Of a stretch of 13,300 nt of DNA, positions 1-13,300 are shown piece by piece. The notes beneath the pieces were generated by a model that saw nothing but the letters and a program-made list of their open reading frames with translations, ran no database searches and had not been told where the DNA came from. The stretch spans positions 1 through 13,300 of the IMG/VR virus record IMGVR_UViG_2681813205_000017; one strand, given 5' to 3'. The position numbers and the translations under genes were made by a program. How positions within the stretch are numbered: the first letter of the stretch is position 1; each line of letters opens with the position of its first letter. This DNA is from a virus (lineage: Duplodnaviria; Heunggongvirae; Uroviricota; Caudoviricetes).

Positions 1-162
1 ATTACTGCTTCAGGTTGGTGTATTGCTTGCATCTTTCCCTTTTCATTCATAAAGATAGATCAAACAACAAAACCACCACCACCCCCCTGAAAAGGCTCAT
101 AAATAGCGAAAATCCGCGAGGTCTCCGCCCCGTAACAGGTCCATATGCCGGAAAGGACCCGC

Positions 163-184
163 AAAAAAGCCGGATTTCTCCGGC
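163..184 (-). terminator. Intrinsic terminator ending the capsid operon (GCCGGA-GAAA-UCCGGC stem-loop plus U6 on the - strand)
   Basis: 6-bp GC-rich stem with a GNRA tetraloop followed by six U on the - strand RNA, 7 bp downstream of the stop of the 191..604 gene. Confidence 0.7.
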
Positions 185-190
185 CTTGTC

Positions 191-604
191 TCAGATGGTT
201 TTCAGTATGCGATCGATGTCGCCGTCATCGCCCGGGTTTCTGCCATCGTATGCCATGCCAGCTGATACGGCTTGTGGGCTGTGCATGTCCATAAAGTTTT
301 CAAAGGCTGCGGTAAGCTCTGGTGCAACCTTCGGGCGTTCCTGCTCTATGGTCATGTTCAGGATGTTTTTAGCCGTATCAACATCAATACAAGGCACGTT
401 TGCCATTGCACGTAACAGCGGCTGATAGTCGTCAGATTCATGAAGCGCCATAATCGCATCAGCGCGCGGCTTGTCCTTCTCTTCCAGGCTGTTAAGTTGA
501 TATACGGCCTCGTAGGTTGATAAACCTCTGTCAGCCATTGCCCGCGCTTCGGCTTTAAATTTACTCGCCAGCGGTAGCGTCATGATACTTTCATTCGTTG
601 CCAT
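191..604 (-). CDS. Hypothetical protein, last gene of the capsid operon (137 aa)
   Basis: ATG at 604 preceded by a GGGGG Shine-Dalgarno. Starts 13 nt after the stop of the decoration-like gene and is followed by an intrinsic terminator. The + strand ORF 15..425 overlapping it lacks such context. Confidence 0.6.
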   Translation of the reverse strand: MATNESIMTLPLASKFKAEARAMADRGLSTYEAVYQLNSLEEKDKPRADAIMALHESDDYQPLLRAMANVPCIDVDTAKNILNMTIEQERPKVAPELTAAFENFMDMHSPQAVSAGMAYDGRNPGDDGDIDRILKTI

Positions 605-616
605 CGTTCCCCCTGC

Positions 617-952
617 TTATCGCGCCAGCGGCTGAACGGATACGCCAGAACCCGCAAAGGCGGCGCATTTTTTCGCGTCGGTGTCGGCGCTCTCAGGCCA
701 GTTAACGGCGGCAATATTGAATATCCCCGTCTTGTAGCACTGTGCTGATTTCTGCGTCGACGTGTCCACGGGGTACGAGGTCAGATAAACAGCCTTGCCA
801 GATTCCTGACCATCCCACGGCTTAAACTCGCCATTTTCCGCCAGCATCAGCGGGGTAAATTCCTGAATAACGCCAGCATCAGCAGCAAAATGTACCAGCG
901 TCGTGGATACCTGCTGACTACCTGCAAATAACTCAATGTATGGAGTGTCCAT
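617..952 (-). CDS. Head decoration protein, lambda gpD-like (111 aa)
   Basis: Translation shares recalled gpD motifs (TPLML, WDG, YK-G-F, WPE, KK-AFAG-VSV) and similar length. GGGGGG Shine-Dalgarno 5 nt upstream of the ATG. Immediately downstream of the capsid gene. Confidence 0.7.
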   Translation of the reverse strand: MDTPYIELFAGSQQVSTTLVHFAADAGVIQEFTPLMLAENGEFKPWDGQESGKAVYLTSYPVDTSTQKSAQCYKTGIFNIAAVNWPESADTDAKKCAAFAGSGVSVQPLAR

Positions 953-964
953 AGAATCCCCCCG

Positions 965-2020
965 TTAACCAATTTTGACGATAACAAATTTGCGAATATC
1001 TGCCGGTACCGGCTGCGGTGCGCTGTGCGTCTGCACGTACTCAATCGCCGGATCGCCGTCCTCAATCCAGTTTTTCGGGTAAAACATGTTTTGCGTTGCG
1101 CCCGTTCTGACCGCTTCCTGATCCATAATCGCACCATAGGCCACCAGCCCTTTATTGTTGGTGTTACCCAGGACCAGCAAATCAGGCTCAAGGAAATATT
1201 TTTCGGTGCCGTCGCTGTCAGTGTATTTGCCGGAATAGACGACAAGGGCAATATCGCCCAGATAGCCTTTAAAGCTCACCACTTCACCCAGGTTTTTACA
1301 GGCCAGTTCTGCGGCGGATTCTGAACCACGGGAAAGGTCGTACAGTTCGCGGAATTTTTTAAAGCTGCGTAACGTGCGCCATACTTCAGCGCCCATAATC
1401 ATGACGTTTGCGGGGCAATTGCCCTGATCAGCATAAAGCTCGATGTCATAGATTGGATCGTGTGTTTCTTTATCCAGCTCAGACCATTTTTTACCGTCAG
1501 CCTGTTCTATGATATTGCTTTCCGGGATCTTCCAGTCGATTTCATAGCGTTCTATGCCTTCGCCCTCAATGAGGTTTTTTCCGGTCGTTACCGCATTCAC
1601 CGCCAGCCATTCCACGCGTGCCTTAATGGCGTTTATCTGGCGGCGCATGTTGCCAGTAATCAGGCGCATACGGCGATAGGTAGGATCGTTAAGCTGTGCC
1701 GGATCTTCTCCAGCCATGCGCATGATGGTTTTTGTTGGATCGATTTCGTGTTTGGGTTTCATGTAGCCTGGTTTAATCGTGCTGGTTTCGTACCCTTTAT
1801 CGCGCTGGACCTGACTACCCACCATAGGCGAACAGAACGCTGACATCGTAACCTCTTCAATGTCCAGGGTGTCCAGAATGATGTTCTGGGTGTTGAAGGT
1901 CGCCACGTTCGGGAAAAACAGCGTGGTAAACAGCGGACTGAATTTAAATTCTGCAATATCCCCGCGATTCAGGTACGCGAAAAGCTGGTTAGTGTTAAGT
2001 GCCGTTGCTTTGCCTGCCAT
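965..2020 (-). CDS. Major capsid protein, lambda gpE family (351 aa)
   Basis: Translation aligns along its length with recalled lambda gpE (FKF-PLF, PGYMKPKHE, DPTYRRMR, LRSFK, RGSES, VVYSGKY, LVLGNT, YPKNW, GDPA, SAP). GGAGGTG Shine-Dalgarno; start overlaps the upstream stop (TAATG). Confidence 0.85.
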   Translation of the reverse strand: MAGKATALNTNQLFAYLNRGDIAEFKFSPLFTTLFFPNVATFNTQNIILDTLDIEEVTMSAFCSPMVGSQVQRDKGYETSTIKPGYMKPKHEIDPTKTIMRMAGEDPAQLNDPTYRRMRLITGNMRRQINAIKARVEWLAVNAVTTGKNLIEGEGIERYEIDWKIPESNIIEQADGKKWSELDKETHDPIYDIELYADQGNCPANVMIMGAEVWRTLRSFKKFRELYDLSRGSESAAELACKNLGEVVSFKGYLGDIALVVYSGKYTDSDGTEKYFLEPDLLVLGNTNNKGLVAYGAIMDQEAVRTGATQNMFYPKNWIEDGDPAIEYVQTHSAPQPVPADIRKFVIVKIG

Positions 2021-2226
2021 TATTCACCTCCATGCGTCTGATTCATGCCCAGCGCCGCGCGTAAATAGGCGCGGACCTGCCAGCCTGTTGACGGCTCAAC
2101 CATCGCCAGCGGATCAAGTCCTGCCGCAATGCCTGCTTTTACGTTCTGCTGGTGGCGTTCCTTGAGCGCCTTCACGATGTCGGGGCTTATGTACACCGAA
2201 ACACCGCCTTTTTTCTCTTCAGCCAT
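2020..2226 (-). CDS. Hypothetical small protein, first gene of the capsid operon (68 aa)
   Basis: ATG at 2226 with a purine-rich ribosome-binding site. Stop overlaps the capsid start codon (translational coupling). Lies ~55 nt downstream of a near-consensus sigma70 promoter. Confidence 0.6.
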   Translation of the reverse strand: MAEEKKGGVSVYISPDIVKALKERHQQNVKAGIAAGLDPLAMVEPSTGWQVRAYLRAALGMNQTHGGE

Positions 2227-2282
2227 AGTAAGAAATTCCTCTTCGACTTAAAAAATCATAACTGGATGTTTATCCAGTCCTG

Positions 2283-2310
2283 ATTATAATCAGAATTGCA
2301 TTTTATGCAA
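2283..2310 (-). promoter_or_regulatory. Sigma70-type promoter of the capsid operon (-35 TTGCAT, 16-bp spacer, -10 TATAAT on the - strand)
   Basis: On the - strand, TTGCAT (complement of 2305..2310) and TATAAT (complement of 2283..2288) with a 16-bp spacer. Both hexamers sit inside perfect palindromes (TTGCATTTTATGCAA and CTGATTATAATCAG). Confidence 0.55.
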
Positions 2311-2390
2311 TGATATTGAGTTATGTTGCAAATTATGAAATGATTATCCCGATCACGAACGCCAGTGCATCCAAAAACCTCATATGCAAA

Positions 2391-2429
2391 AGCCCGATAA
2401 GAACCCTCTGACCTTATCGGGCTTTTTTT
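2391..2429 (+). terminator. Strong stem-loop with T7 tract (AGCCCGATAAG ... CTTATCGGGCT TTTTTTT); + strand intrinsic terminator geometry, possibly bidirectional
   Basis: 11-bp stem followed by seven T on the + strand. On the - strand the same hairpin is followed by UUUUG. No + strand gene upstream, so it may act mainly as a second - strand terminator or insulator. Confidence 0.5.
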
Positions 2430-2435
2430 GGGCGC

Positions 2436-2457
2436 AAAAAAGCCGGATTGCTCCGGC
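2436..2457 (-). terminator. Intrinsic terminator after the 74-aa gene (GCCGGA-GCAA-UCCGGC plus U6)
   Basis: Same module as 163..184 and 2799..2821 but with a GCAA tetraloop; lies 20 bp downstream of the stop at 2478. Confidence 0.7.
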
Positions 2458-2477
2458 TATGTGTGCTGTGTGCTGGC

Positions 2478-2702
2478 TCAGTCTCTGATCTCTTTCAGAA
2501 ATTCTATCAATGCATCTATCTGTTCAGGATTTACCGCCAGCATTTCACCGGACAGAGCACATCTCACAAAACCATGCTGATCCTTTTCAATCAGTGCGCC
2601 CGTCTCCAGGAATGCGCGGTAATCATTGATGCTCATCGTCTCCATGTTGTCAGCATGGTATTTATCACGCTGTTTTAATATCTCATCAAATTTCATCGGC
2701 AT
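2478..2702 (-). CDS. Hypothetical protein (74 aa), monocistronic moron-like cassette
   Basis: ATG at 2702 preceded by AGAGGA. The gene is bracketed by intrinsic terminators on both sides (2799..2821 upstream, 2436..2457 downstream). Confidence 0.6.
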   Translation of the reverse strand: MPMKFDEILKQRDKYHADNMETMSINDYRAFLETGALIEKDQHGFVRCALSGEMLAVNPEQIDALIEFLKEIRD

Positions 2703-2798
2703 TGTTTTTTTCCTCTGTTGTGTCTGTTTGTTTCAGATAGTAACTATGCCTGACCGTGACGAAAACCCGGTAATGCGCCATACCGTTTCAACTGGTGC

Positions 2799-2821
2799 AA
2801 AAAAAGCCGGATTTCTCCGGC
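2799..2821 (-). terminator. Intrinsic terminator after the PerC-like gene (GCCGGA-GAAA-UCCGGC plus U7)
   Basis: GNRA-tetraloop hairpin plus U-tract on the - strand, 8 bp downstream of the stop at 2829. Confidence 0.7.
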
Positions 2822-2828
2822 TGTTTGA

Positions 2829-3104
2829 TTAGCTGTCCTGGTAATTGCGCCATATTTCATCACCAGCACCATCTATACCCATTTCGGCATAAGTGCGATC
2901 GACTGCCTTTTTCAGGTCTCCGAAATTATCCGGCGGCTCCGGTGCCCTCTGTGCCTTCCTTGAACATTCCAGCCGTCGCATCGTGATGTGATGCCGTTCC
3001 TTGTCTGTCTCCACCAGCTGCATGACTTCACCCCATCGCGCCGCCGCCCTCCGGTAAAAGCCTTTCGCCTCTAGTTCCTCCGCTATGCGGTCATGTACCA
3101 TCGT
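2829..3104 (-). CDS. PerC-family transcriptional regulator (91 aa)
   Basis: N-terminal AEELEAKGFYRRAAARWGEVM matches the recalled PerC/Pch signature (LE-G-WRRAA-RW). The likely start is the ATG at 3104 (GAGGGGG Shine-Dalgarno, 8 nt after the SSB stop) rather than the ORF-track start at 3221, which would overlap ssb by 110 nt. Confidence 0.65.
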   Translation of the reverse strand, partial: TMVHDRIAEELEAKGFYRRAAARWGEVMQLVETDKERHHITMRRLECSRKAQRAPEPPDNFGDLKKAVDRTYAEMGIDGAGDEIWRNYQDS

Positions 3105-3111
3105 CACCCCC

Positions 3112-3522
3112 TCAGAACGAAATATCATCACCGTAAGGGTCATCGCCTCCCGCTGGTGGCTGATTACCCTGTGTGCCTGTGGTTTTGCGTCTGTTCCCGC
3201 CAGGACGTGCCGCACGGGCACTGATTACGCTGTCTGCAATAACCTGATACCCCTGCCGTGTTTCCCCGTTCTGTCCGGTCCACTGGCTTACCTGCATCGT
3301 GCCGGATACGCTGGCAACATCGCCTTTTTGATGTTTAGCCAGGAAATCGGCCTGTTTGCCAAATGCGATAACCGATAACCATAACGTCGCCTGTCCGTCA
3401 TGTGCCTGGCTGCATGGCAACGATACCGCCATACGCGCCAGAGTCATCGGTGTGCCCTTGCTGGTCTGTTTTACCTGCGGGTCGTCCACCAGCCGCCCGT
3501 AAGCGGCTATCTGTGCCGTCAT
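3112..3522 (-). CDS. ssb: Single-stranded DNA-binding protein (136 aa)
   Basis: OB-fold core resembles E. coli SSB (W-x-x-V-x-x-FGK ... KG ... W), followed by a Gly/Gln/Pro-rich linker and an acidic C-terminal tail DDPYGDDISF (E. coli SSB ends DDDIPF). GGAGAGGTG Shine-Dalgarno; ATGA overlap with the upstream gene. Confidence 0.85.
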   Translation of the reverse strand: MTAQIAAYGRLVDDPQVKQTSKGTPMTLARMAVSLPCSQAHDGQATLWLSVIAFGKQADFLAKHQKGDVASVSGTMQVSQWTGQNGETRQGYQVIADSVISARAARPGGNRRKTTGTQGNQPPAGGDDPYGDDISF

Positions 3523-3770
3523 AATTCCACCTCTCCGGTTTTAACGTTGATGGTTGTTACCTGTTCCGCTTCGGCAATCTCCCGTTCTGTCAGCGTGGCA
3601 AAGTTTGCCGCCGCCGTGGTCATGAATGCGCTTATCAGGTCGGGATGTTCCTTCGCGTATCCTTCCCGCGTGTGGCGGTCTATCGTTCTGATTGCCACCT
3701 TTAAGGTGTGCTCAGTCATGTCTAACGCTTTATATTTTGGCTCTGTTCTGTCTCTGCGTTTTTGGGTCAT
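3519..3770 (-). CDS. Hypothetical protein (83 aa from the ATG at 3770; alternative start at 3800 gives 93 aa)
   Basis: ORF translationally coupled to ssb (ATGA overlap). The ATG at 3770 has a GAGAGG ribosome-binding site and avoids overlap with the iterons. Confidence 0.5.
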   Translation of the reverse strand: MTQKRRDRTEPKYKALDMTEHTLKVAIRTIDRHTREGYAKEHPDLISAFMTTAAANFATLTEREIAEAEQVTTINVKTGEVEL

Positions 3771-3782
3771 TTCTCGCAACCT

Positions 3783-3973
3783 CTCACTTTTTCGCCTCAC
3801 TTTTTCAAGCGTCTCACTTCGTCGCAGCTGGGATTTTCGGTTTTTCTATGTGTGTGTTTCATAAGTATTTTTTTACCCCTCACTTTTGAGGATGTATACA
3901 GGTCGAAAAGTGAGGGAGAGCAGGCTAATTTTGGCCCTCTTTCTATCCACCTCGCTTTTGCTCCTCACTTTTA
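3783..3973. repeat. Putative replication origin: six CTCACTT(TT) iterons flanking an AT-rich stretch
   Basis: CTCACTT copies at 3783, 3796, 3813 and 3879, an inverted copy at 3906..3915 (AAAAGTGAGG) and another at 3963, plus a degenerate copy near 3950. AT-rich segment 3836..3876. Lies directly 3' of the helicase gene. Confidence 0.55.
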
Positions 3974-5371
3974 TAGCGGCGCTACATCATCCCCATCGAT
4001 ACGAATAACCCCATCTTTTTCCAGCTTGTACAGCCAGCGCCGGAAGTTTTTCATTTCATACCCCAGCTTTTTCATGTCATCACGTAACAGCGGGATCGTG
4101 CACTTGTCGCCGTTCTGTGTGCGTGAACGGATGCACCCCCATAGCGCGGTATGGTTTTCCGTCTTGTTCCCTGCCTCCTCGATGCGCTCCAGTTCAACAG
4201 GAGGGCGCGGATCATCCACCACCACCAGCGACGTGATTAATTCACCGTCAGCGTCGGTAAAAAGCTCCACCACGCGTAAGTCATATGCGGCTTCTTTGAG
4301 TTCCTCCGCGTCCTTCATTTTGGTGCATGAGATAACCAGCGCTTCGCTTCCTGCGTCCTCCCTGCGTATCCGGTATTCAGCATCCAGCGAAGCACGAAAT
4401 GCACTGGAACCGCGCGCGCCTTTCGTCTCATCCTTGCCGGAATGGTGAACCACCAGCACCGTGGCCCCTGTGCGTCGTTTCAGTTCGTCACAACCACGGA
4501 TAAACGCCCCCATATCACGGGAATCATTTTCATCATTCCCACCAAAGCAACGCGCCAGCGTATCCAGAATAATCATGCGTACAGGTTTACCCGTTTCCCG
4601 CTCCACCTGACGGGCAGCGATAACCATTTCATCAACATCAAGCGGGGCAGCCGGAAAGATGGGGCGGTTTACCAGATACAGATTTTTCACCTGCTCATCG
4701 TGCACAACCTCCCAGGCTTTTACACGACGCGGAACACCTATACCGCCTTCACCAACCACATAGAGAACCGCACCATGTGCAACCCTGCGGCCTCCCCACT
4801 GGCGACCAGTGGCAACATGGCACGCCCACGATCCGGCAAGGAATGATTTATAGGACCCGCTAGCCCCGTATATGCTGCATAGCGATACCGCCGGAATAAT
4901 CCCCTTAACCACGTAATCCAGTTGCGTGTCGTATCCGGTAGATCCAACGCTCATCGGTAGCGTGGTTTTTCGCTGGTGGTTTTTTTCTTCCGCCGGCTCT
5001 TTCCCGCGCACCCGTTCCAGGTATTCGCGCCAGTTCTCCCGCATATGGCTGTGCATCCCTTCGGGGTAATAATTCGCATCAGTTACACCCGCCGCCGCCA
5101 GCTTGTGCGCAATGGCATTAATATTTGATGGCCTGATGTGGCCTGCCTTGTACAGCCGGACACAATAGCGCCCCTCGTCGATGATTCTCAGGTCTGCCAG
5201 TTCATCCAGTTGATCATCAGCCAGCACAACGGGAGGCACATTATCGCCAGCCAGTCGCCCGTCCTGTTCCTGCCACTGTTTCGCATGTGCCCAGGCATCA
5301 CTACCCGCAAAAATAATGACTTCGGTCATCTTGTCGTAAGGCTGTTTTTTTAAGTTCGGTGCGCTTTTCAT
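3971..5371 (-). CDS. Replication initiator / replicative helicase, RecA-fold ATPase (RepA / AAA_25-like), 466 aa
   Basis: Walker A-like GASGSYKS, Walker B-like MIILDTLARCF, and VLVVHHSGKD typical of RepA/DnaB-like helicases of satellites and plasmids. ATGA overlap with the upstream gene; iterons immediately downstream. Confidence 0.75.
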   Translation of the reverse strand: MKSAPNLKKQPYDKMTEVIIFAGSDAWAHAKQWQEQDGRLAGDNVPPVVLADDQLDELADLRIIDEGRYCVRLYKAGHIRPSNINAIAHKLAAAGVTDANYYPEGMHSHMRENWREYLERVRGKEPAEEKNHQRKTTLPMSVGSTGYDTQLDYVVKGIIPAVSLCSIYGASGSYKSFLAGSWACHVATGRQWGGRRVAHGAVLYVVGEGGIGVPRRVKAWEVVHDEQVKNLYLVNRPIFPAAPLDVDEMVIAARQVERETGKPVRMIILDTLARCFGGNDENDSRDMGAFIRGCDELKRRTGATVLVVHHSGKDETKGARGSSAFRASLDAEYRIRREDAGSEALVISCTKMKDAEELKEAAYDLRVVELFTDADGELITSLVVVDDPRPPVELERIEEAGNKTENHTALWGCIRSRTQNGDKCTIPLLRDDMKKLGYEMKNFRRWLYKLEKDGVIRIDGDDVAPL

Positions 5372-5667
5372 TTCTTGCCCCTGAATCCGTTAATCATGGT
5401 TTTCAGCTTCTGGATGTTTGCCCGTGCCCTGGCGTTGCTGGTGGGCACGTTATGCGGCGCGGTCTGTACCAGAGAAAAATCACGCCGGAACTGATAAACA
5501 GGCATCACGCAATCATATTCGTAACCTTCACGGCGGTAGGTTACGCGCCGTTCTTCCACGCCCTTAATCATTACCGTGCCGCCGTACTGGTCGCGGTAAA
5601 TATCACCGCGCGTAAATTTAGGGTGAGTGTTGCCACTGGCAGTTAAGCCAGAATATTTAAGTTTCAT
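5368..5667 (-). CDS. Hypothetical protein (99 aa), translationally coupled to the helicase gene
   Basis: ATG at 5667; stop overlaps the helicase start (ATGA). Basic, Tyr/Arg-rich; no recognisable motif. Confidence 0.55.
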   Translation of the reverse strand: MKLKYSGLTASGNTHPKFTRGDIYRDQYGGTVMIKGVEERRVTYRREGYEYDCVMPVYQFRRDFSLVQTAPHNVPTSNARARANIQKLKTMINGFRGKK

Positions 5668-5672
5668 TATTT

Positions 5673-5906
5673 TTATTCTCCGGTGTGCTGTTCTTTATAT
5701 CTGTCGTGCAATAGATCTATTTCTTGCAGTTCCATTATTACAGGATCAAGAAGCGTTATTAATGCCGTGGCAATTCTTGATTTTTGTTTGTCGCGTTCAT
5801 TGTCGCCAAGTGTTTCAAGCCATATGCGCAATATTTCCAGCATGTTTTCACTGTGAGAAAGTGCAAGAAATGCGCGGTCTATTGTTTGGTGGTAAATATC
5901 ACGCAT
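5673..5906 (-). CDS. Hypothetical protein (77 aa)
   Basis: ATG at 5906 overlaps the stop of the upstream gene (ATGCGTGA). Part of the same coupled gene chain. Confidence 0.55.
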   Translation of the reverse strand: MRDIYHQTIDRAFLALSHSENMLEILRIWLETLGDNERDKQKSRIATALITLLDPVIMELQEIDLLHDRYKEQHTGE

Positions 5907-6357
5907 GGCTTACATCCTCAGGAAATTTTCTTCTATAACGCGCCTCTGCCACATATTCCGCATAATCGGCGGCGATATTCAGTACATCAAGCCCCGTTGA
6001 TTTATATTCTCTCGTGGAAAGTAAGAAAAAAGCCGCTCTAATAAGTTCTGGCATTGACGAAAGCGCATCAGCCGCATCATCAGGAACGCCGGAAAATTCC
6101 TGTTTCAGGGAATTAAAACGATCATCACGCATAACCCCCCCCCCATTTTCACAATCAGCAACAAGAATATTTTTAGCGTCATTCAGCGACCGCGTTGCGG
6201 TGTATCGGATACATTCCAGGGCGAATAGTGTGTATTCTTCCCTTTCTTCCCTTTCTTCCTTTTGTGCAAGCTCTGCTGTGCATTCAATATCAATAAGCGC
6301 GTGCATCAGCGTAGTGAGTGCGGCGGCGGCTGCGTCCGGTGTGGTTTTATTGCACAT
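5899..6357 (-). CDS. Hypothetical acidic protein (153 aa from the ATG at 6357) containing an in-frame G10 tract
   Basis: ATG at 6357 has a GGAGGGG Shine-Dalgarno 3 nt upstream. The ORF-track start at 6411 has no ribosome-binding site and would overlap the upstream gene by 65 nt. Contains an EEREEREE repeat and the Gly-Gly-Gly encoded by the C10 run at 6135..6144. Confidence 0.55.
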   Translation of the reverse strand: MCNKTTPDAAAAALTTLMHALIDIECTAELAQKEEREEREEYTLFALECIRYTATRSLNDAKNILVADCENGGGVMRDDRFNSLKQEFSGVPDDAADALSSMPELIRAAFFLLSTREYKSTGLDVLNIAADYAEYVAEARYRRKFPEDVSHA

Positions 6358-6577
6358 GTACCCCTCCGCATTTTTTTTCGTTAGAAATAAGCGTTCTTCT
6401 TTCCTGTTCATCGATCAGGAATACGCAGACCTCACCGCTAAGGCGTTTAAGTAAGCCGATGATTGCCCCTGATTCGCTGTCGGTCATCATGCCTGGGTAA
6501 TCCTCTGCCAGTGCGCAAATAACTTCGATTTGGTGGGCGCGTTCTACTGCCTGTTGTAGTGTGATTTCCTGGCTCAT
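6347..6577 (-). CDS. Hypothetical protein (76 aa)
   Basis: ATG at 6577 with a GGGGG ribosome-binding site; ATGA overlap with the candidate upstream ORF. Contains an A8 tract on the coding strand. Confidence 0.55.
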   Translation of the reverse strand: MSQEITLQQAVERAHQIEVICALAEDYPGMMTDSESGAIIGLLKRLSGEVCVFLIDEQERRTLISNEKKCGGVHVQ

Positions 6578-6774
6578 AAGCCTACCCCCTGACGAATACG
6601 GGCAGCGAATACCATCACGCAGCCAGCCGGGGATTGCAGGCGTGCTTCCTGTTCGCTGGTGGCCTCAATGGTAATCACGCGCGGTTGTGCAGTGCTCAGG
6701 GCGATAAAACGCCAAATGTATTTATTCAGGTTGTGCGAGTCCCGCCCTTGCGGGTGTGTGGTATGATTTCTCAT
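6574..6774 (-). CDS. Candidate small ORF (66 aa), putative first gene of the early operon
   Basis: Not listed separately in the ORF track; it is the C-terminal end of the spurious 381-aa ORF. ATG at 6774 with a GAGG ribosome-binding site 6 nt upstream; stop overlaps the next start (ATGA); ~100 nt downstream of the predicted - strand promoter. Confidence 0.4.
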   Translation of the reverse strand: MRNHTTHPQGRDSHNLNKYIWRFIALSTAQPRVITIEATSEQEARLQSPAGCVMVFAARIRQGVGL

Positions 6775-6872
6775 AGCTACCTCGATACTCTCGTTATCGT
6801 TGGTGGTTAGAAGCCCCGTTACTGCTCCTACAGTGCGGGGTTTCGTCGTTTCTGCACCTTGCATTAACAAGG

Positions 6873-6950
6873 TGTAAGTAACTTTATTTATAGGTGGCTT
6901 ACATGTCAATGCTTTTATGTAAGACTTTTTATGTGTATATTGTCTTACAC
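6873..6950. promoter_or_regulatory. Divergent switch region: four TGTAAG / CTTACA operator half-sites overlapping a - strand TTGACA-N17-TAAAGT promoter
   Basis: Half-sites at 6873 (TGTAAG), 6898 (CTTACA), 6919 (TGTAAG) and 6945 (CTTACA), alternating in orientation. On the - strand a perfect -35 TTGACA (complement of 6904..6909) and a -10 TAAAGT (complement of 6881..6886) with a 17-bp spacer. Confidence 0.5.
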
Positions 6951-6970
6951 TTTCATTGAGAGGATTACAG

Positions 6971-7276
6971 ATGGCTACAGGTTCAAAAAACGCAAAATCA
7001 CAATCACTGACAGCTCGGATCCCGCATGATGTTATTGAAGGCATGGAATCCGTAAAACTGGACGGTGAAAGCAACGCCGGATTCATAGTAACCGCCATGC
7101 GCGGTGAAATCGCCCGCCGCCAGGCAGAAGGAAGCGGAGAAAACCTCCTGATTTCTTCGCTCAATGCACTGGCGCAGGTGGAAAAACTCGGAATCAAAGC
7201 CGCCGAGGAGATCGGGCAGCTCGTCACTGTCGCACGTGAAGAACTCCAGCGCCGCAAGACTAAAGAACCAGAGTAA
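6971..7276 (+). CDS. Putative transcriptional regulator, candidate repressor of the early operon (101 aa)
   Basis: ATG at 6971 with a GAGAGGA Shine-Dalgarno. Divergent from the - strand operon and immediately downstream of the operator cluster. Function is inferred from position only. Confidence 0.55.
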   Translation: MATGSKNAKSQSLTARIPHDVIEGMESVKLDGESNAGFIVTAMRGEIARRQAEGSGENLLISSLNALAQVEKLGIKAAEEIGQLVTVAREELQRRKTKEPE

Positions 7277-7318
7277 TCACCATCAGCGCCGTGGTGTAAG
7301 GTATTACGGCGCATTGCT

Positions 7319-7507
7319 ATGCAGGACAACACAATGACCGATAAAGAATTGACCAAAACATTATCACCGGCACGGAAAAGACGGCGCAGAAAGATAGAGC
7401 ATGAATCAGAAAGATTCGCGCCATGTGCTTTTGCCCTTGAGCAATTCCTTAAAGAGTACAGGGAAAAGCGCTCATTGCAGGTATGGCAACGAACTGAACC
7501 AGACTGA
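7319..7507 (+). CDS. Small basic protein (62 aa; alternative start at 7334)
   Basis: ORF following the regulator on the same strand, with a Lys/Arg-rich stretch (ARKRRRRK). Followed by an intrinsic terminator at 7603..7630. Confidence 0.4.
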   Translation: MQDNTMTDKELTKTLSPARKRRRRKIEHESERFAPCAFALEQFLKEYREKRSLQVWQRTEPD

Positions 7508-7602
7508 TAGCATTGCCCACCAGCCTGATAGCGACTATCATTGCCGTTCTTATGTTTGGGATCACACACACAAACGGCGCAGCGGGTTATCTGTTCAGAA
7601 AG

Positions 7603-7630
7603 GCGGCTCCATTTCGGGGCCGCTTTTTTT
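7603..7630 (+). terminator. Intrinsic terminator for the + strand regulator genes
   Basis: GCGGCUCC ... GGGGCCGC stem (one G-U wobble) with a 5-nt loop, followed by seven T. Confidence 0.6.
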
Positions 7631-7776
7631 ATGTCTGAAAAACCCCAATTTTGTTGTTTTTCAGTTTCACCAGGGCGAACGAATCCCCGCCCACGTTCTG
7701 GCGTATATTCAATCTTCATGGTTATAGCTCTGTGTTCAGATGATTGATGTGTGGCGGCTGCGTGCCGCCAGCGTGA

Positions 7777-7965
7777 TTAATGAACTGCCTTGCAGCTATC
7801 CTTCCAGGCCAGAACCTCGGATAAAGACCAGCCAACGGAACGACCGCCAAGTTTACGACGTGATGGGAATTGTCCGGCCTTTTCCAGGCGGTAGCGACAC
7901 GTACGGCTAAGGCCGGTTAGTTTTTCGCATTCTTTTTCACGTATAAACCGATCAGTGCTTAACAC
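7777..7965 (-). CDS. alpA: AlpA-family phage regulator / excisionase-like protein (62 aa from GTG at 7965)
   Basis: CEKLTGLSRTCRYRLEKAGQFP ... GGRSVGWSLSEVLAWK matches the AlpA helix-turn-helix signature. The ORF track starts at a TTG at 8046, but a GTG at 7965 has an AGGGGGG Shine-Dalgarno and gives the typical AlpA length. Confidence 0.75.
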   Translation of the reverse strand: MLSTDRFIREKECEKLTGLSRTCRYRLEKAGQFPSRRKLGGRSVGWSLSEVLAWKDSCKAVH

Positions 7966-8238
7966 TATTGCCCCCCTTTCGTTTCTTAAAGAGTCATCAG
8001 GTGTCTTATTGTGTCGTATTGTTCCCGCTAGAGTGATGAATGGCAAATATTGAGGATGTATGATTTACAGAAAATGAAACAGTAAGAATAAAATCTTTTA
8101 AATTCATGTTAATACAAAGGCATAAAATATTGTTTCATGCCTTTTTTCTCACGCGTTAAAGCGTTATTCGCTAATGTATAAAAAAACAGTCACACAAATA
8201 AAATCAGTCACTTATAAACCTGTGTACTTTTTCGCCTC

Positions 8239-8288
8239 TTGTTCGTGGTTGTTCCACGTTGTTTCACATTGTTCGCCGTTGTATCTGT
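8239..8288. repeat. Five tandem 10-bp units each beginning TTGT (helically phased) between int and alpA
   Basis: TTGTTCGTGG TTGTTCCACG TTGTTTCACA TTGTTCGCCG TTGTATCTGT, an exact 10-bp period. Confidence 0.6.
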
Positions 8289-8330
8289 GTGCTTATCCAG
8301 TATGCGCATACTGAAAAAACACGAAAAAAA

Positions 8331-9548
8331 TTATTTTCTTCTGGCTGCTGGTAGTGCGGTTACGTTTTCATGTGTTCCCGCCAGTATCCCTAACCGCTCC
8401 ATCCACATATCCAGCGCATTGCGTTTAGCATCCAGATAACGGGAATGATTATAAACTCGCTGCATTCCTGGCATCTGGTGGCCTGTAAGCTGCTCCACGA
8501 CATGCGGATCAACGCCTAAATCGTTCAGCATGGTTGTAAAGGTGCGCCGGATGTCATGCAGTGACCAGTGAGGATGATTAAGCCTCCTGTGCGCTAATCT
8601 TCCATACTGCGATACGCTGGCCTCCTGTTTCACTTCCCCCAGCAATAAGCCCGTGTGCCTGTTCTGCTCCACCAGCTGCGTGACGAACGGCAGTATTGCT
8701 TCCGGTATGGGCCGGAATATTGCCACCTTCGTTTTGCTGTGTTCTTTCGGCACGGTCCAGAGCATTTCGGTAAAATCCCACTCGCTGATCTCCGATAACC
8801 TCAGTTCTACCGTCCGGCATCCGAACACAATCAGGAGGCGGATTAACGCGATGTAGTAGGGGGAGAATATTTTTTTGTCCAGTGCCTGCAATAATTCGCC
8901 CAGTTCTTTGGTGCTTAAGACACGCTCGCTTATATCCGGTTTTTTCCCAACGTCCGCCACACTCATATCATCAAGAACGTTGCTGATTGCATAGCGCCGC
9001 CTCCGGCAGAACTTAAGCGCCTGTTTGCACGTCTGTAGCAAGAATCCGGCAGTAACAGGCGTTCGCTTTGCCACCTGGTCAAAACAGGCCAGCCAGTGCC
9101 GTAGCTCGCATTTATCCAGCGGCATAGCACCAATGTGCTGTATTACGTGATTATTAAGTCGCCTTTTCAGGGCGATATAATCCACGCGGTTTTCCTTTAC
9201 GTAATACTCAAGCCAGTAGGTGAGCGCATCGCCAACCGTTACGGGCTTTAACGCTTCCTGTACGGTGTAATTCATCTCATGACGTGGATTTTTCCCCTCA
9301 GCCAGCCATGTGCGACACTGTGCGGCTTTTTCCCTGGCTGCTTTCAGGCTCAGATCAGGATAACTTCCCAGCTTAATGCGTTCGGGTCGTGTCTCCCTTC
9401 CCGTTCCGGCCCTGTATGTGAAATACCAGGTCAATTTCCCTGATGTTAAATATTTCACGCTCAGGTTTCCGCCATCACTATAAAACGTGTTTTTCTCCGC
9501 TGGCTTACCATGAAGTTTCCTTAGCAAGGTATCGCTCAGTTTGTTCAT
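8331..9548 (-). CDS. int: Tyrosine integrase, P4-like family
   Basis: N-terminal arm-binding-type motif (KPAEKNTFYSDGGNLSVKYL), C-terminal catalytic region with HDIRRT and VYNHSRY (R, H-x-x-R, Y). Start is probably the ATG at 9548 (MNKLSD...); the ORF track uses a GTG at 9560. It is the outermost island gene next to the junction. Confidence 0.85.
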   Translation of the reverse strand: MNKLSDTLLRKLHGKPAEKNTFYSDGGNLSVKYLTSGKLTWYFTYRAGTGRETRPERIKLGSYPDLSLKAAREKAAQCRTWLAEGKNPRHEMNYTVQEALKPVTVGDALTYWLEYYVKENRVDYIALKRRLNNHVIQHIGAMPLDKCELRHWLACFDQVAKRTPVTAGFLLQTCKQALKFCRRRRYAISNVLDDMSVADVGKKPDISERVLSTKELGELLQALDKKIFSPYYIALIRLLIVFGCRTVELRLSEISEWDFTEMLWTVPKEHSKTKVAIFRPIPEAILPFVTQLVEQNRHTGLLLGEVKQEASVSQYGRLAHRRLNHPHWSLHDIRRTFTTMLNDLGVDPHVVEQLTGHQMPGMQRVYNHSRYLDAKRNALDMWMERLGILAGTHENVTALPAARRK

Positions 9549-9584
9549 TGCTCTGCTCACGTTTTACCCCCTCTTTACGAAAAA

Positions 9585-9650
9585 GTGACTACACCAGTGA
9601 CTACACCGATCGTTGCACAAAGGGCTACAACGTGAAACAAGCTGGAACAA
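9585..9650. promoter_or_regulatory. int upstream region with a 12-bp tandem repeat (GTGACTACACC x2) and four 10-bp phased units ending ACAA; candidate arm-type or regulator binding sites
   Basis: GTGACTACACCA GTGACTACACCG at 9585..9608. CGTTGCACAA AGGGCTACAA CGTGAAACAA GCTGGAACAA at 9611..9650, which is the reverse complement motif of the array at 8239..8288. Confidence 0.45.
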
Positions 9651-9757
9651 GGAAAATCACAAATCTGTTGATAATCAAAAACATAATGCACAGCCTGAAA
9701 CATTATGAAACAGCAAAAAACACTAAATGATAAAATGCTGTTATTCTTAACCCGCTG

Positions 9758-10642
9758 GTGCAACACATGGTCCGCTGGCGAGTGCCGCGTGTACTGGCGG
9801 TGTCGATTTTGATGACCATCATCGTGATGGCGATGGTGTTGCTATTAGCTTATCTGGGTTCCGCGCTCAACGAGTTGACGCGGACGTTACCGCAATATCG
9901 CAACTCTATTATGACGCCGCTGCAAGCTCTTGAGCCGTTGTTGCAACGCGTAGGGATTGACGTCTCAGTTGACCAGCTGGCGCATTACATTGATCCGAAC
10001 GCGGCGATGACGTTGCTCACCAACTTATTGACGCAGTTATCTAATGCCATGTCATCAATATTTTTATTGCTGCTGACGGTGCTGTTTATGCTGCTCGAAG
10101 TGCCACAATTGCCCGGAAAATTTCAGCAAATGATGGCGCGTCCGGTTGAAGGGATGGCGGCGATTCAACGTGCAATTGACAGTGTTTCTCATTATCTGGT
10201 GCTGAAAACAGCCATCAGCATCATCACCGGCCTGGTCGCCTGGGCGATGCTCGCCGCACTCGATGTTCGCTTCGCTTTTGTCTGGGGATTGCTGGCCTTT
10301 GCGCTTAATTACATCCCTAATATTGGTTCAGTTCTCGCGGCAATCCCCCCTATCGCTCAGGTACTGGTGTTTAATGGCTTCTACGAAGCGTTGCTGGTGC
10401 TGGCGGGATATCTGCTGATTAATCTGGTCTTCGGCAATATTCTGGAGCCGCGCATCATGGGACGTGGGCTGGGGCTTTCCACATTGGTGGTATTTTTGTC
10501 GTTGATTTTTTGGGGATGGTTGTTAGGACCGGTGGGTATGCTGCTTTCCGTGCCGTTAACAATTATTGTCAAAATTGCGCTTGAACAAACAGCGGGAGGT
10601 CAAAGCATCGCCGTTCTGTTAAGCGATCTCAATAAAGAGTGA
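9758..10642 (+). CDS. tqsA: AI-2 exporter TqsA (YdgG), 5'-truncated by the island insertion (294 codons retained)
   Basis: Translation matches recalled E. coli TqsA from its internal [15 protein letters not shown] segment to the C-terminal SDLNKE. An in-frame TAA at 9731..9733 lies directly upstream and there is no native N-terminus or ribosome-binding site. The ORF-track start is an internal GTG. Confidence 0.8.
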
Positions 10643-10662
10643 CGGCCTCCGCAGAGGCCGTC
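10641..10662. terminator. Shared stem-loop between convergent tqsA and pntB (GACGGCCTC-cgca-GAGGCCGTC)
   Basis: 9-bp perfect GC-rich inverted repeat lying exactly between the two stop codons. Confidence 0.55.
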
Positions 10663-10666
10663 AGGG

Positions 10667-12058
<1,392 letters not shown>

Positions 12059-12065
12059 TTACCCC

Positions 12066-13300
<1,235 letters not shown>

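Follow-up and report, generated by a model that had tools for sequence, protein, structure and literature searches.

Does a long open reading frame (ORF) that runs antisense to two genuine genes have a meaning of its own, or is it only a by-product of those genes that masks a short gene at its 3' end? The question is raised by a 13,300-nucleotide stretch of viral DNA (Caudoviricetes; IMG/VR record IMGVR_UViG_2681813205_000017, positions 1 to 13,300; below, the window), which, judging by its gene content, is a phage-satellite island of the phage-inducible chromosomal island (PICI) type with its own capsid genes. The minus strand of the window contains a 381-aa ORF (6574..7719) whose last 66 codons comprise a small gene, here denoted icd, so that the long ORF, which spans the entire gap between alpA and the early (replication) operon, has icd as its in-frame 3' end. 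An earlier note on this DNA correctly placed the 381-aa ORF antisense to the plus-strand ORFs 6971..7276 and 7319..7507 and proposed that only its last 66 codons are real, the rest being spurious. We find that the 66-aa gene is ordinary and already present in RefSeq, and that the part of interest is the conserved bridging frame, which is indifferent to its product. This frame is kept open in related islands and probably is a functional analogue of the P4 gene eta, so that the pair would represent a variant of the kil/eta nested genes in a PICI-type satellite.

A Kil/Icd-family gene at the end of a long open frame

The protein encoded by the last 66 codons begins with MRNHTTHPQGRDSHNLNKYIWRF and ends with RQGVGL, with the start codon ATG at 6774-6772. 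It matches the NCBIfam profile NF033153 (phage_ICD_like) with 69.1 bits (cutoff 25; E = 2.4e-19), the match spanning profile positions 1-48 of 48 and residues 19-62 of the protein, which places it in this family; the RefSeq protein WP_001244083.1 maps to exactly 6574-6774, with identical coordinates and sequence in NZ_CP027355. An analysis of conservation and codon substitution across homologous islands, which the earlier note had called for, favors the short gene. Among 53 distinct homologous coding sequences, the ratio of nonsynonymous to synonymous differences per site (pN/pS) is 0.26 in the icd frame and 2.0 and 1.3 in the shifted frames; in a fuller alignment, it is 0.27 in the icd frame, 1.98 and 1.17 in the other two same-strand frames, and 0.37 in the antisense mirror frame, which shares third positions with the icd frame. 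Within the gene, the core (codons 19-62) yields 0.19, and codons 1-18 yield 1.0. Judged by these ratios and by the family match, purifying selection acts on the icd frame only, among the three frames of the minus strand, and the 66-aa ORF is a genuine, already annotated gene of the Kil/Icd family. Expression of P1 Icd or P4 Kil inhibits cell division or kills the cell, and by analogy with these proteins, the 66-aa product may be expected to have a similar effect.

The signals for the expression of this gene are conserved as well. The sequence GTATCGAGG is unvarying across 27 distinct sequences of the upstream 42 nt, and the core of the Shine-Dalgarno (SD) sequence is kept in 55 of the 57 distinct upstream sequences of homologous loci. 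The junction with the next gene always consists of overlapping stop and start codons, the overlap being 4-11 nt in the other variants. The ATG, the GAGG and the ATGA that had been noticed earlier are all in place (Table 1), and so is the promoter predicted about 100 nt upstream: TTGACA-17-TAAAGT is the best, and the only strong, sigma-70 match in 6200-8400, its -10 element ending 106 nt before the icd ATG, and a TTGAC(A/G)-type promoter ends 100-130 nt ahead of the ATG in 46 of 57 variants (median, 109 nt). These SD and promoter features exceed chance, and the sequence points to an internal promoter of the kind expected in a P4-type pair. The claim that the 66-aa ORF is a real gene and the first cistron after this promoter is, therefore, borne out jointly by the profile match, the RefSeq entry, the substitution pattern and the conserved SD.

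In an AlphaFold2 model of the 66-aa protein, residues 19-61 form a beta-beta-alpha-beta unit with a predicted local distance difference test (pLDDT) score of about 80, only one of the five models being confident, and residues 1-18 (pLDDT <60) are predicted to be disordered. A Foldseek search with the model against the PDB returned nothing below E = 2.6, so no fold is assigned. The tblastn search of 50,697 phage records with the protein yielded one weak match and did not retrieve P4, and BLASTP against P4 Kil gave only E = 0.019, the link to P4 having come from the hidden Markov model. Many homologues of 66-68 aa are recorded in the PICI-type and P4-like satellites of E. coli. Across the databases, Icd-like entries disagree on the start, with lengths from 66 to 116 aa, because gene callers followed the open upstream frame to a varying extent. 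The Icd/Kil families PHROGs 6196, 1743 and 6928 are labelled 'transcriptional repressor', and this label appears to derive from the old annotation of P4 cI as a 137-aa protein in the eta/kil frame.

The upstream frame is kept open

Given a genuine 66-aa gene, the rest of the 381-aa frame could be a chance ORF, a shadow of the opposite-strand genes, and this was, in effect, the position of the earlier note. The observations behind it stand: the composition is Ser/Arg/Cys-rich, and the ORF is antisense to real genes. Such features imply a product other than a conventional folded protein, but they are no proof against the frame, and that the frame is meaningless does not follow from them.

We assembled a set of related loci, 80 of them from viral contigs and 12 from other genera. 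Between 6775 and 7776 of the window, 25 and 22 stop codons interrupt the other two frames, and none the icd frame. Upstream of the ATG, the icd frame is open for 146-411 codons in most of 81 distinct sequences, whereas the other two frames close within 0-10 codons, again in most. Where alpA is found upstream (61 loci; interval of 451-1270 nt), the icd frame usually contains 0-1 stops and the other two 10-28 each. A single stop-free run on the minus strand covers at least 90% of the alpA-to-icd interval in 38 of the 52 distinct intervals, those of Hafnia and Kosakonia among them, and at least 75% in 39 of the 41 intervals that do not exceed 1300 nt. Stop-free runs in the icd frame upstream of the icd ATG extend for 288 codons in Hafnia, 299 in Rahnella, 287 in Leclercia, 348 in Kosakonia and 191 in Serratia; of these five loci, only those of Rahnella (126 nt) and Serratia (111 nt) align with the window interval in blastn at E = 1e-10.

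To what extent the opposite strand accounts for this openness can be gauged with a null model of the window, in which the amino acid sequences of the plus-strand genes were fixed and the non-coding parts were shuffled (5000 resamples). The model predicts 10.4 stops, against the observed 0, and none of the 5000 resamples is stop-free. Opposite the plus-strand genes ylcI (6971..7276) and orf62 (7319..7507), few stops are expected (1.25 and 0.14, with the probability of no stops, P(0), equal to 0.24 and 0.86, respectively), that is, the antisense of these genes is nearly stop-free anyway, so the signal of openness rests on the non-coding segments and on the recurrence across variants. The non-coding segments, however, are stop-free too, with 4.8 stops expected in the promoter/leader segment (P(0) = 0.006) and 3.7 in 7508-7776 (P(0) = 0.017). 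The shadow explanation does accord with the lack of protein-level selection in the upstream part and of a Pfam domain. It has to contend, however, with the recurrence of the open frame in most of the intervals and in other genera with unrelated sequence, while the other frames are riddled with stops, with a dedicated SD and ATG right behind alpA in many variants, and with the same arrangement in P4, where the function has been demonstrated. That only the 66-aa gene is real is, accordingly, highly improbable. By comparison with related islands, the 381-aa frame is not a spurious or chance ORF but is kept open, and on this point the earlier note, which had dismissed the long ORF, is at variance with the stop-free frames in most of the related islands and in other genera, with the frame's own SD and ATG in many variants, and with the eta/kil architecture of P4.

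An open frame without a conserved product

In many variants and genera, Hafnia and Kosakonia among them, the long frame has a start of its own, consisting of a strong SD and an ATG that lies 8-14 nt past the alpA stop, as in gcgTAAagggggagtatATG. In the variant represented by the window, the alpA TAA itself marks the opening of the frame, and the first ATG (7719) follows 57 nt downstream, with a weak SD (AGAG). In the window, alpA is directly upstream of the long ORF and in frame with it; read-through of the alpA stop, or a fusion, was considered and rejected, given that the phase of alpA relative to icd varies among the loci (28, 18 and 15 loci). A GC-rich hairpin, TGGCGGC-ACGCA-GCCGCCA (7752-7770, minus strand), lies a few nucleotides past the alpA stop; it has a U tract on neither strand and is present in the alpA variants nearest to that of the window.

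What, then, is conserved in this frame? Next to alpA (7580-7776), its pN/pS is 0.83, like that of every other frame there. Opposite ylcI, the ratio is 0.16 in the plus frame and 0.28 in the long-ORF frame, and opposite orf62, the respective values are 0.36 and 0.58. Because each third codon position on one strand is paired with a third position on the other, the low values in the long-ORF frame are the expected mirror of the real plus-strand genes; the effect is no larger than the mirror effect at icd (0.27 vs 0.37). The upstream sequence is a mosaic, with no relatedness between variants, and a Pfam search with the long ORF of the window, with E values up to 1, detected no domain, Phage_ASH included. 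Judged by sequence comparison, selection appears to act on the openness of the frame and not on the protein sequence: by all appearances, the frame is translated into a product that is not conserved.

These observations bear directly on another possibility, namely, that the long ORF encodes a functional long protein, in which the Icd-like domain is preceded by an active N-terminal extension, and which serves as an effector of cell death or exclusion, with the short form being secondary. The run is in frame with icd in most loci, so a fusion product is to be expected, and P4 Eta, which has been treated as a 'Bro network' protein, carries the Pfam domain Phage_ASH. Such a role is, however, hard to reconcile with the pN/pS of the unique upstream part, with the mosaic, unrelated sequences of the variants and with the lack of a detectable domain. 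Furthermore, some variants have a run that is out of frame with icd and ends 22 nt or 115-176 nt ahead of the icd ATG, and the invariant internal SD argues for the short form being made. Transposon insertions would also be polar on icd and the downstream genes, and polarity would explain them equally well. A functional long protein appears unlikely.

The upstream part of the 381-aa frame has also found its way into annotation. The minus-strand pseudogene at 7168-7719 (7869-8420 in the NZ_CP027355 locus), which the Prokaryotic Genome Annotation Pipeline and RefSeq describe as 'host cell division inhibitor Icd-like protein, incomplete, missing C-terminus', is this upstream part, an annotation artefact seeded by the long-form entries; thus, the open frame explains both the spread of Icd-like entry lengths and the false pseudogene.

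Comparison with P4 and P1

The architecture of the locus has a close counterpart in P4 (NC_001609). There, the minus-strand ORF 8168-8812 ends in a 65-aa segment (MATTLTPSHPEFVFVF...VVEVSRA; 8168-8365) that scores 76.1 bits against NF033153, and the start codons of the ORF, ATGATGATG, overlap the TGA of vis/ORF88, the alpA homologue. This ORF and its 65-aa end are eta and kil of Forti et al. 1999; in that work (J Bacteriol 181:5225), the sizes of kil and eta are reportedly 65 aa and 197-199 aa, which agrees with the P4 sequence. In P4 as in the window, a longer ORF ends, in frame, with the Kil homologue (65 and 66 aa, respectively); within the long ORF lies a promoter (in the window, a putative one), downstream of which kil comes first in translation; the order is alpA, long frame, nested Kil, with the replication genes next on the same strand; and, in the window, a long frame is maintained regardless of its product (38 of 52 intervals, 0 stops vs 10.4 expected, pN/pS of 0.83), as expected of a P4-type pair. 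According to PMC10111431, which cites Forti et al., the P4 internal promoter drives kil, and translation of the complete eta depends on the upstream late promoter alone; this translation, which is coupled to that of the alpA homologue, keeps the late transcript from terminating, such that it reads through.

The differences are substantial as well. In P4, the CI/C4 RNA, the a1b1 target and an isrK-like element are located between the promoter and kil, and matches to the Rfam families RF01695, RF03163 and RF01394 are found at 8420-8705, the cI RNA itself being at 8420-8507. By contrast, an Rfam search of the whole window with E values up to 1 detected no C4/CI, isrK or other known RNA, and the leader in the window is only about 100 nt long. 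P4 Eta contains Phage_ASH (4.5e-23; residues 37-161), unlike the window ORF, which is about twice as long as eta, overlaps two antisense plus-strand genes and crosses two one-way terminators. Finally, the long ORF of the window starts 57 nt after alpA, whereas that of P4 overlaps the stop of the alpA homologue. By its sequence, the switch of the window looks like a protein-operator system in place of RNA immunity. As a side observation on P4, the DNA that encodes the Phage_ASH span of Eta includes the cI RNA region.

P1 Icd, the namesake of the family, is a small protein that is encoded by a first cistron and translationally coupled to the next gene; it is said, in the work of Riedel, Heinrich and Schuster (1993), to belong to the immI operon (c4 RNA - icd - ant). 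Unlike P1 immI, the window lacks a C4 RNA detectable with Rfam, and the 76-aa protein encoded downstream of icd (phrog_1478) has no match to the Ant/Bro families. To our knowledge, no long frame upstream of icd has been described for P1. The window shares with Gram-negative PICIs and capsid-forming PICIs (cf-PICIs; Fillol-Salom 2018; Alqurainy 2023) the integrase, alpA, the helicase/replication module and its own head genes, all on one strand; in the papers on these elements that we consulted, the bridging ORF and the Icd-like gene are undescribed, and 'Icd' occurs zero times in the preprint 10.1101/2022.09.08.507074.

A possible anti-termination bridge

Since alpA, the long frame, the internal promoter, the nested Kil and the replication genes are arranged in the same way as in P4, we propose that the 381-aa frame is a functional analogue of P4 eta, and consider this reading to be probable. 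Under this scenario, the early operon would be served by two transcripts. The first would start at the internal, operator-flanked promoter (6909-6881), with icd as the first cistron, translated from its own SD and ATG and coupled through the ATGA to the next gene. The second, postulated from the P4 precedent, would enter through alpA once a helper phage turns alpA on; alpA is needed for the induction of a cf-PICI by the helper phage (Alqurainy 2023, preprint 10.1101/2022.09.08.507074). On this transcript, ribosomes would cross the antisense of the YlcI-like gene, the two one-way terminators and the promoter region and would arrive at icd still translating; in the frame-shifted variants, they would halt 22 to about 170 nt before icd. 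Both terminator hairpins fold well with U tracts only on the plus strand (on the minus strand, the folding energy is -12.3 kcal/mol, with no U tract, for 7602..7630, through which the long ORF reads, and -16.6 for the hairpin in the icd leader), so minus-strand transcription should pass them. By analogy with P4 eta, continuous translation would prevent Rho-dependent termination along about 1 kb of RNA that would otherwise carry no ribosomes, such that transcription from upstream would enter the early operon regardless of the operator-controlled promoter. Both the anti-termination step and the use of an upstream promoter are modelled here on P4 and P1.

Several considerations weigh against this proposal, in addition to the near absence of expected stops opposite the plus-strand genes. 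The bridging run is lacking in a few loci (L007, L009 and L036), and many of the E. coli loci share descent and so are not independent samples. In the window itself, the 57-nt gap and the weak SD make coupling to alpA less obvious than in P4 and in other variants. A scan of the minus-strand RNA for C-rich, G-poor sequence, as a proxy for Rho loading, revealed no clear region. The P4 immunity RNA was not found in the window, so the regulatory logic may differ, and the mechanism is put forward by analogy.

The lack of a clear Rho-loading region, together with the passage of the long ORF antisense through a candidate regulator gene and its operators, would also fit a different reason for the frame being open: ribosomes might unfold the hairpins or displace a repressor, or the YlcI-like gene might be silenced by convergent transcription and translation, the reading through to icd being incidental. 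Such effects are compatible with, rather than exclusive of, an eta-like function, and the run consistently reaches to or near the start of icd instead of ending past ylcI; as a replacement for the eta-like function, we deem this very unlikely.

If the bridging frame indeed acts like eta, then a translation-dependent anti-termination device known from one phage would be general in the PICI-type satellites of Enterobacteriaceae, and the locus would offer a clean natural case of selection that favors openness of a frame regardless of what it encodes, in an overlap with a real gene on the opposite strand. The finding bears on how the island switches from silence to helper-induced replication, as well as on the reports of 'long Icd-like' cell-death effectors.

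Operators, plus-strand genes and a candidate antisense RNA

The coordinates of the features discussed here are collected in Table 1.

Table 1. Features of the icd locus and of the surrounding island in the window
Feature	Position	Strand	Basis or details
kil/icd-like gene, 66 aa (host cell division inhibitor Icd-like protein)	6574..6774	-	NF033153; RefSeq; pN/pS
Shine-Dalgarno GAGG	6780..6783	-	5 nt ahead of ATG 6774, read from sequence
ATGA stop/start overlap with next cistron	6574..6577	-	TGA 6576-6574, ATG 6577-6575
Next cistron, 76 aa, phrog_1478	6347..6577	-	ORF and PHROG match
Putative internal promoter TTGACA-17-TAAAGT in long ORF (analogue of P4 PLE)	6881..6909	-	10/12 consensus matches
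Four TGTAAG/CTTACA operator-like half-sites	6873-6878, 6898-6903, 6918-6923, 6944-6949	.	flank -35 and -10 of divergent promoters
Divergent YlcI/YnfO-family gene (ylcI), 101 aa	6971..7276	+	NF041551 5.5e-20; SD GAGAGGA
Small gene orf62, 62 aa	7319..7507	+	phrog_21027 1.6e-15, residues 6-50; pN/pS 0.36
Predicted one-way intrinsic terminator of plus-strand genes	7602..7630	+	-21.7 kcal/mol, U7 tract
Predicted one-way intrinsic terminator in icd leader	6810..6853	+	hairpin 6810-6844, then UUUCGUCGUUUC; -21.9 on plus strand
Eta-like upstream part of 381-aa ORF	6775..7719	-	open to 7776, bounded by alpA TAA 7777-7779
alpA (P4 vis homologue)	7777-7965	-	Pfam Phage_AlpA 1.5e-16; RefSeq CDS
Integrase	8331-9560	-	profile match
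RepA-type helicase (AAA_25)	3971-5371	-	profile match

The YlcI-like protein may be the regulator that acts on the operator-like half-sites. A reading of its N-terminus as a ribbon-helix-helix domain, as in P22 Arc and Mnt, is unsupported: BLASTP gave no alignment with the Arc and Mnt sequences, and neither a profile search of PDB sequences nor Pfam produced a match. Consequently, we refer to this protein only as a candidate regulator. The short repeats around the TTGAC-N17 promoter are particular to each island variant (the window and loci L003-L093), examples being GTGTTCAACAC, TGTGCGCACA and GTGGCTGACACC, and residues 12-14 of the YlcI-like protein are variable in the alignment. Together, the variant-specific repeats and the variable residues look like a set of immunity specificities, linkage not being separated from co-variation in this comparison. 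The second plus-strand gene, orf62, has no RefSeq annotation, and its start is probably the ATG at 7334, 7 nt past an AGGA.

The first 18 codons of icd and the preceding 42 nt (6721-6816, minus strand) are conserved at the nucleotide level, with pS and pN both at 0.044, compared with a pS of 0.17 in the icd core, and this block is 91-97% identical between islands with mosaic flanks. The pattern suggests a nucleic-acid element, that is, an antisense RNA or a structure involved in translation initiation, rather than protein constraint. On the plus strand, a candidate cis-antisense RNA of about 85 nt (window 6759-6853) lies opposite the SD and ATG of icd. Its putative promoter is an extended -10 element, TGgTATGAT (6759-6767), within icd codons 2-5, and is followed by the leader hairpin and the U tract. 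The 85-nt RNA is predicted to fold with -35.2 kcal/mol (z-score of -4.7); a clear promoter is confined to the E. coli and Serratia types, and Rfam has no match for the RNA. The stems of the leader hairpin covary among 44 variants, with G.U pairs on the plus strand where the minus strand has C.A mismatches.

Taken together, these elements allow a broader, more speculative reading, which we regard as doubtful although conceivable: this satellite family would have swapped the RNA immunity of P4 for a bridge-ORF switch combined with a cis-antisense RNA of about 85 nt that gates the translation of the Kil-like protein. The bridge ORF, serving for translation only, would carry the helper-induced alpA transcripts antisense through the regulator gene and over both terminators, one act thereby silencing the regulator and bypassing its operators, and the plus-strand RNA (from about 6774 to 6853) would run from the extended -10 element in icd codons 2-5 to the covarying hairpin.

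The island and its relatives

The 701 bp around the 66-aa gene are 100% identical to E. coli chromosomes, for example, NZ_CP027355, and the same region is matched in 1604 of 5426 complete E. coli genomes. On the minus strand, the island encodes, in this order, the integrase, AlpA, the Icd-like protein, several small proteins, a DUF4222 protein and the RepA-type helicase, and further, a single-stranded DNA-binding protein, PerC-like activators, a major head protein and a head decoration protein. The integrase, alpA and the replication module on one strand, together with the island's own head genes, are the features that mark PICIs and cf-PICIs; the terminase and HNH genes of the island are outside the window. 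The neighbours of the island are tqsA and pntBA. At the integrase end, tqsA (9758-10642, plus strand) is annotated in RefSeq as incomplete, with the N-terminus missing, and is followed by pntB and pntA (10667-13295); apparently, the island is inserted in tqsA at the 5' end of the gene.

Despite the 100% identity around icd, the head modules of the window (191-2020) and of NZ_CP027355 (1-3245 of that locus) differ: the former consists of a major head protein (phrog_29) and a head-decoration protein, and the latter of a major capsid protein, an HK97-family protease and a portal protein. The gene coordinates of the two are already offset by 5 nt at the helicase. By this comparison, the mosaicism of the island family extends to the late genes.

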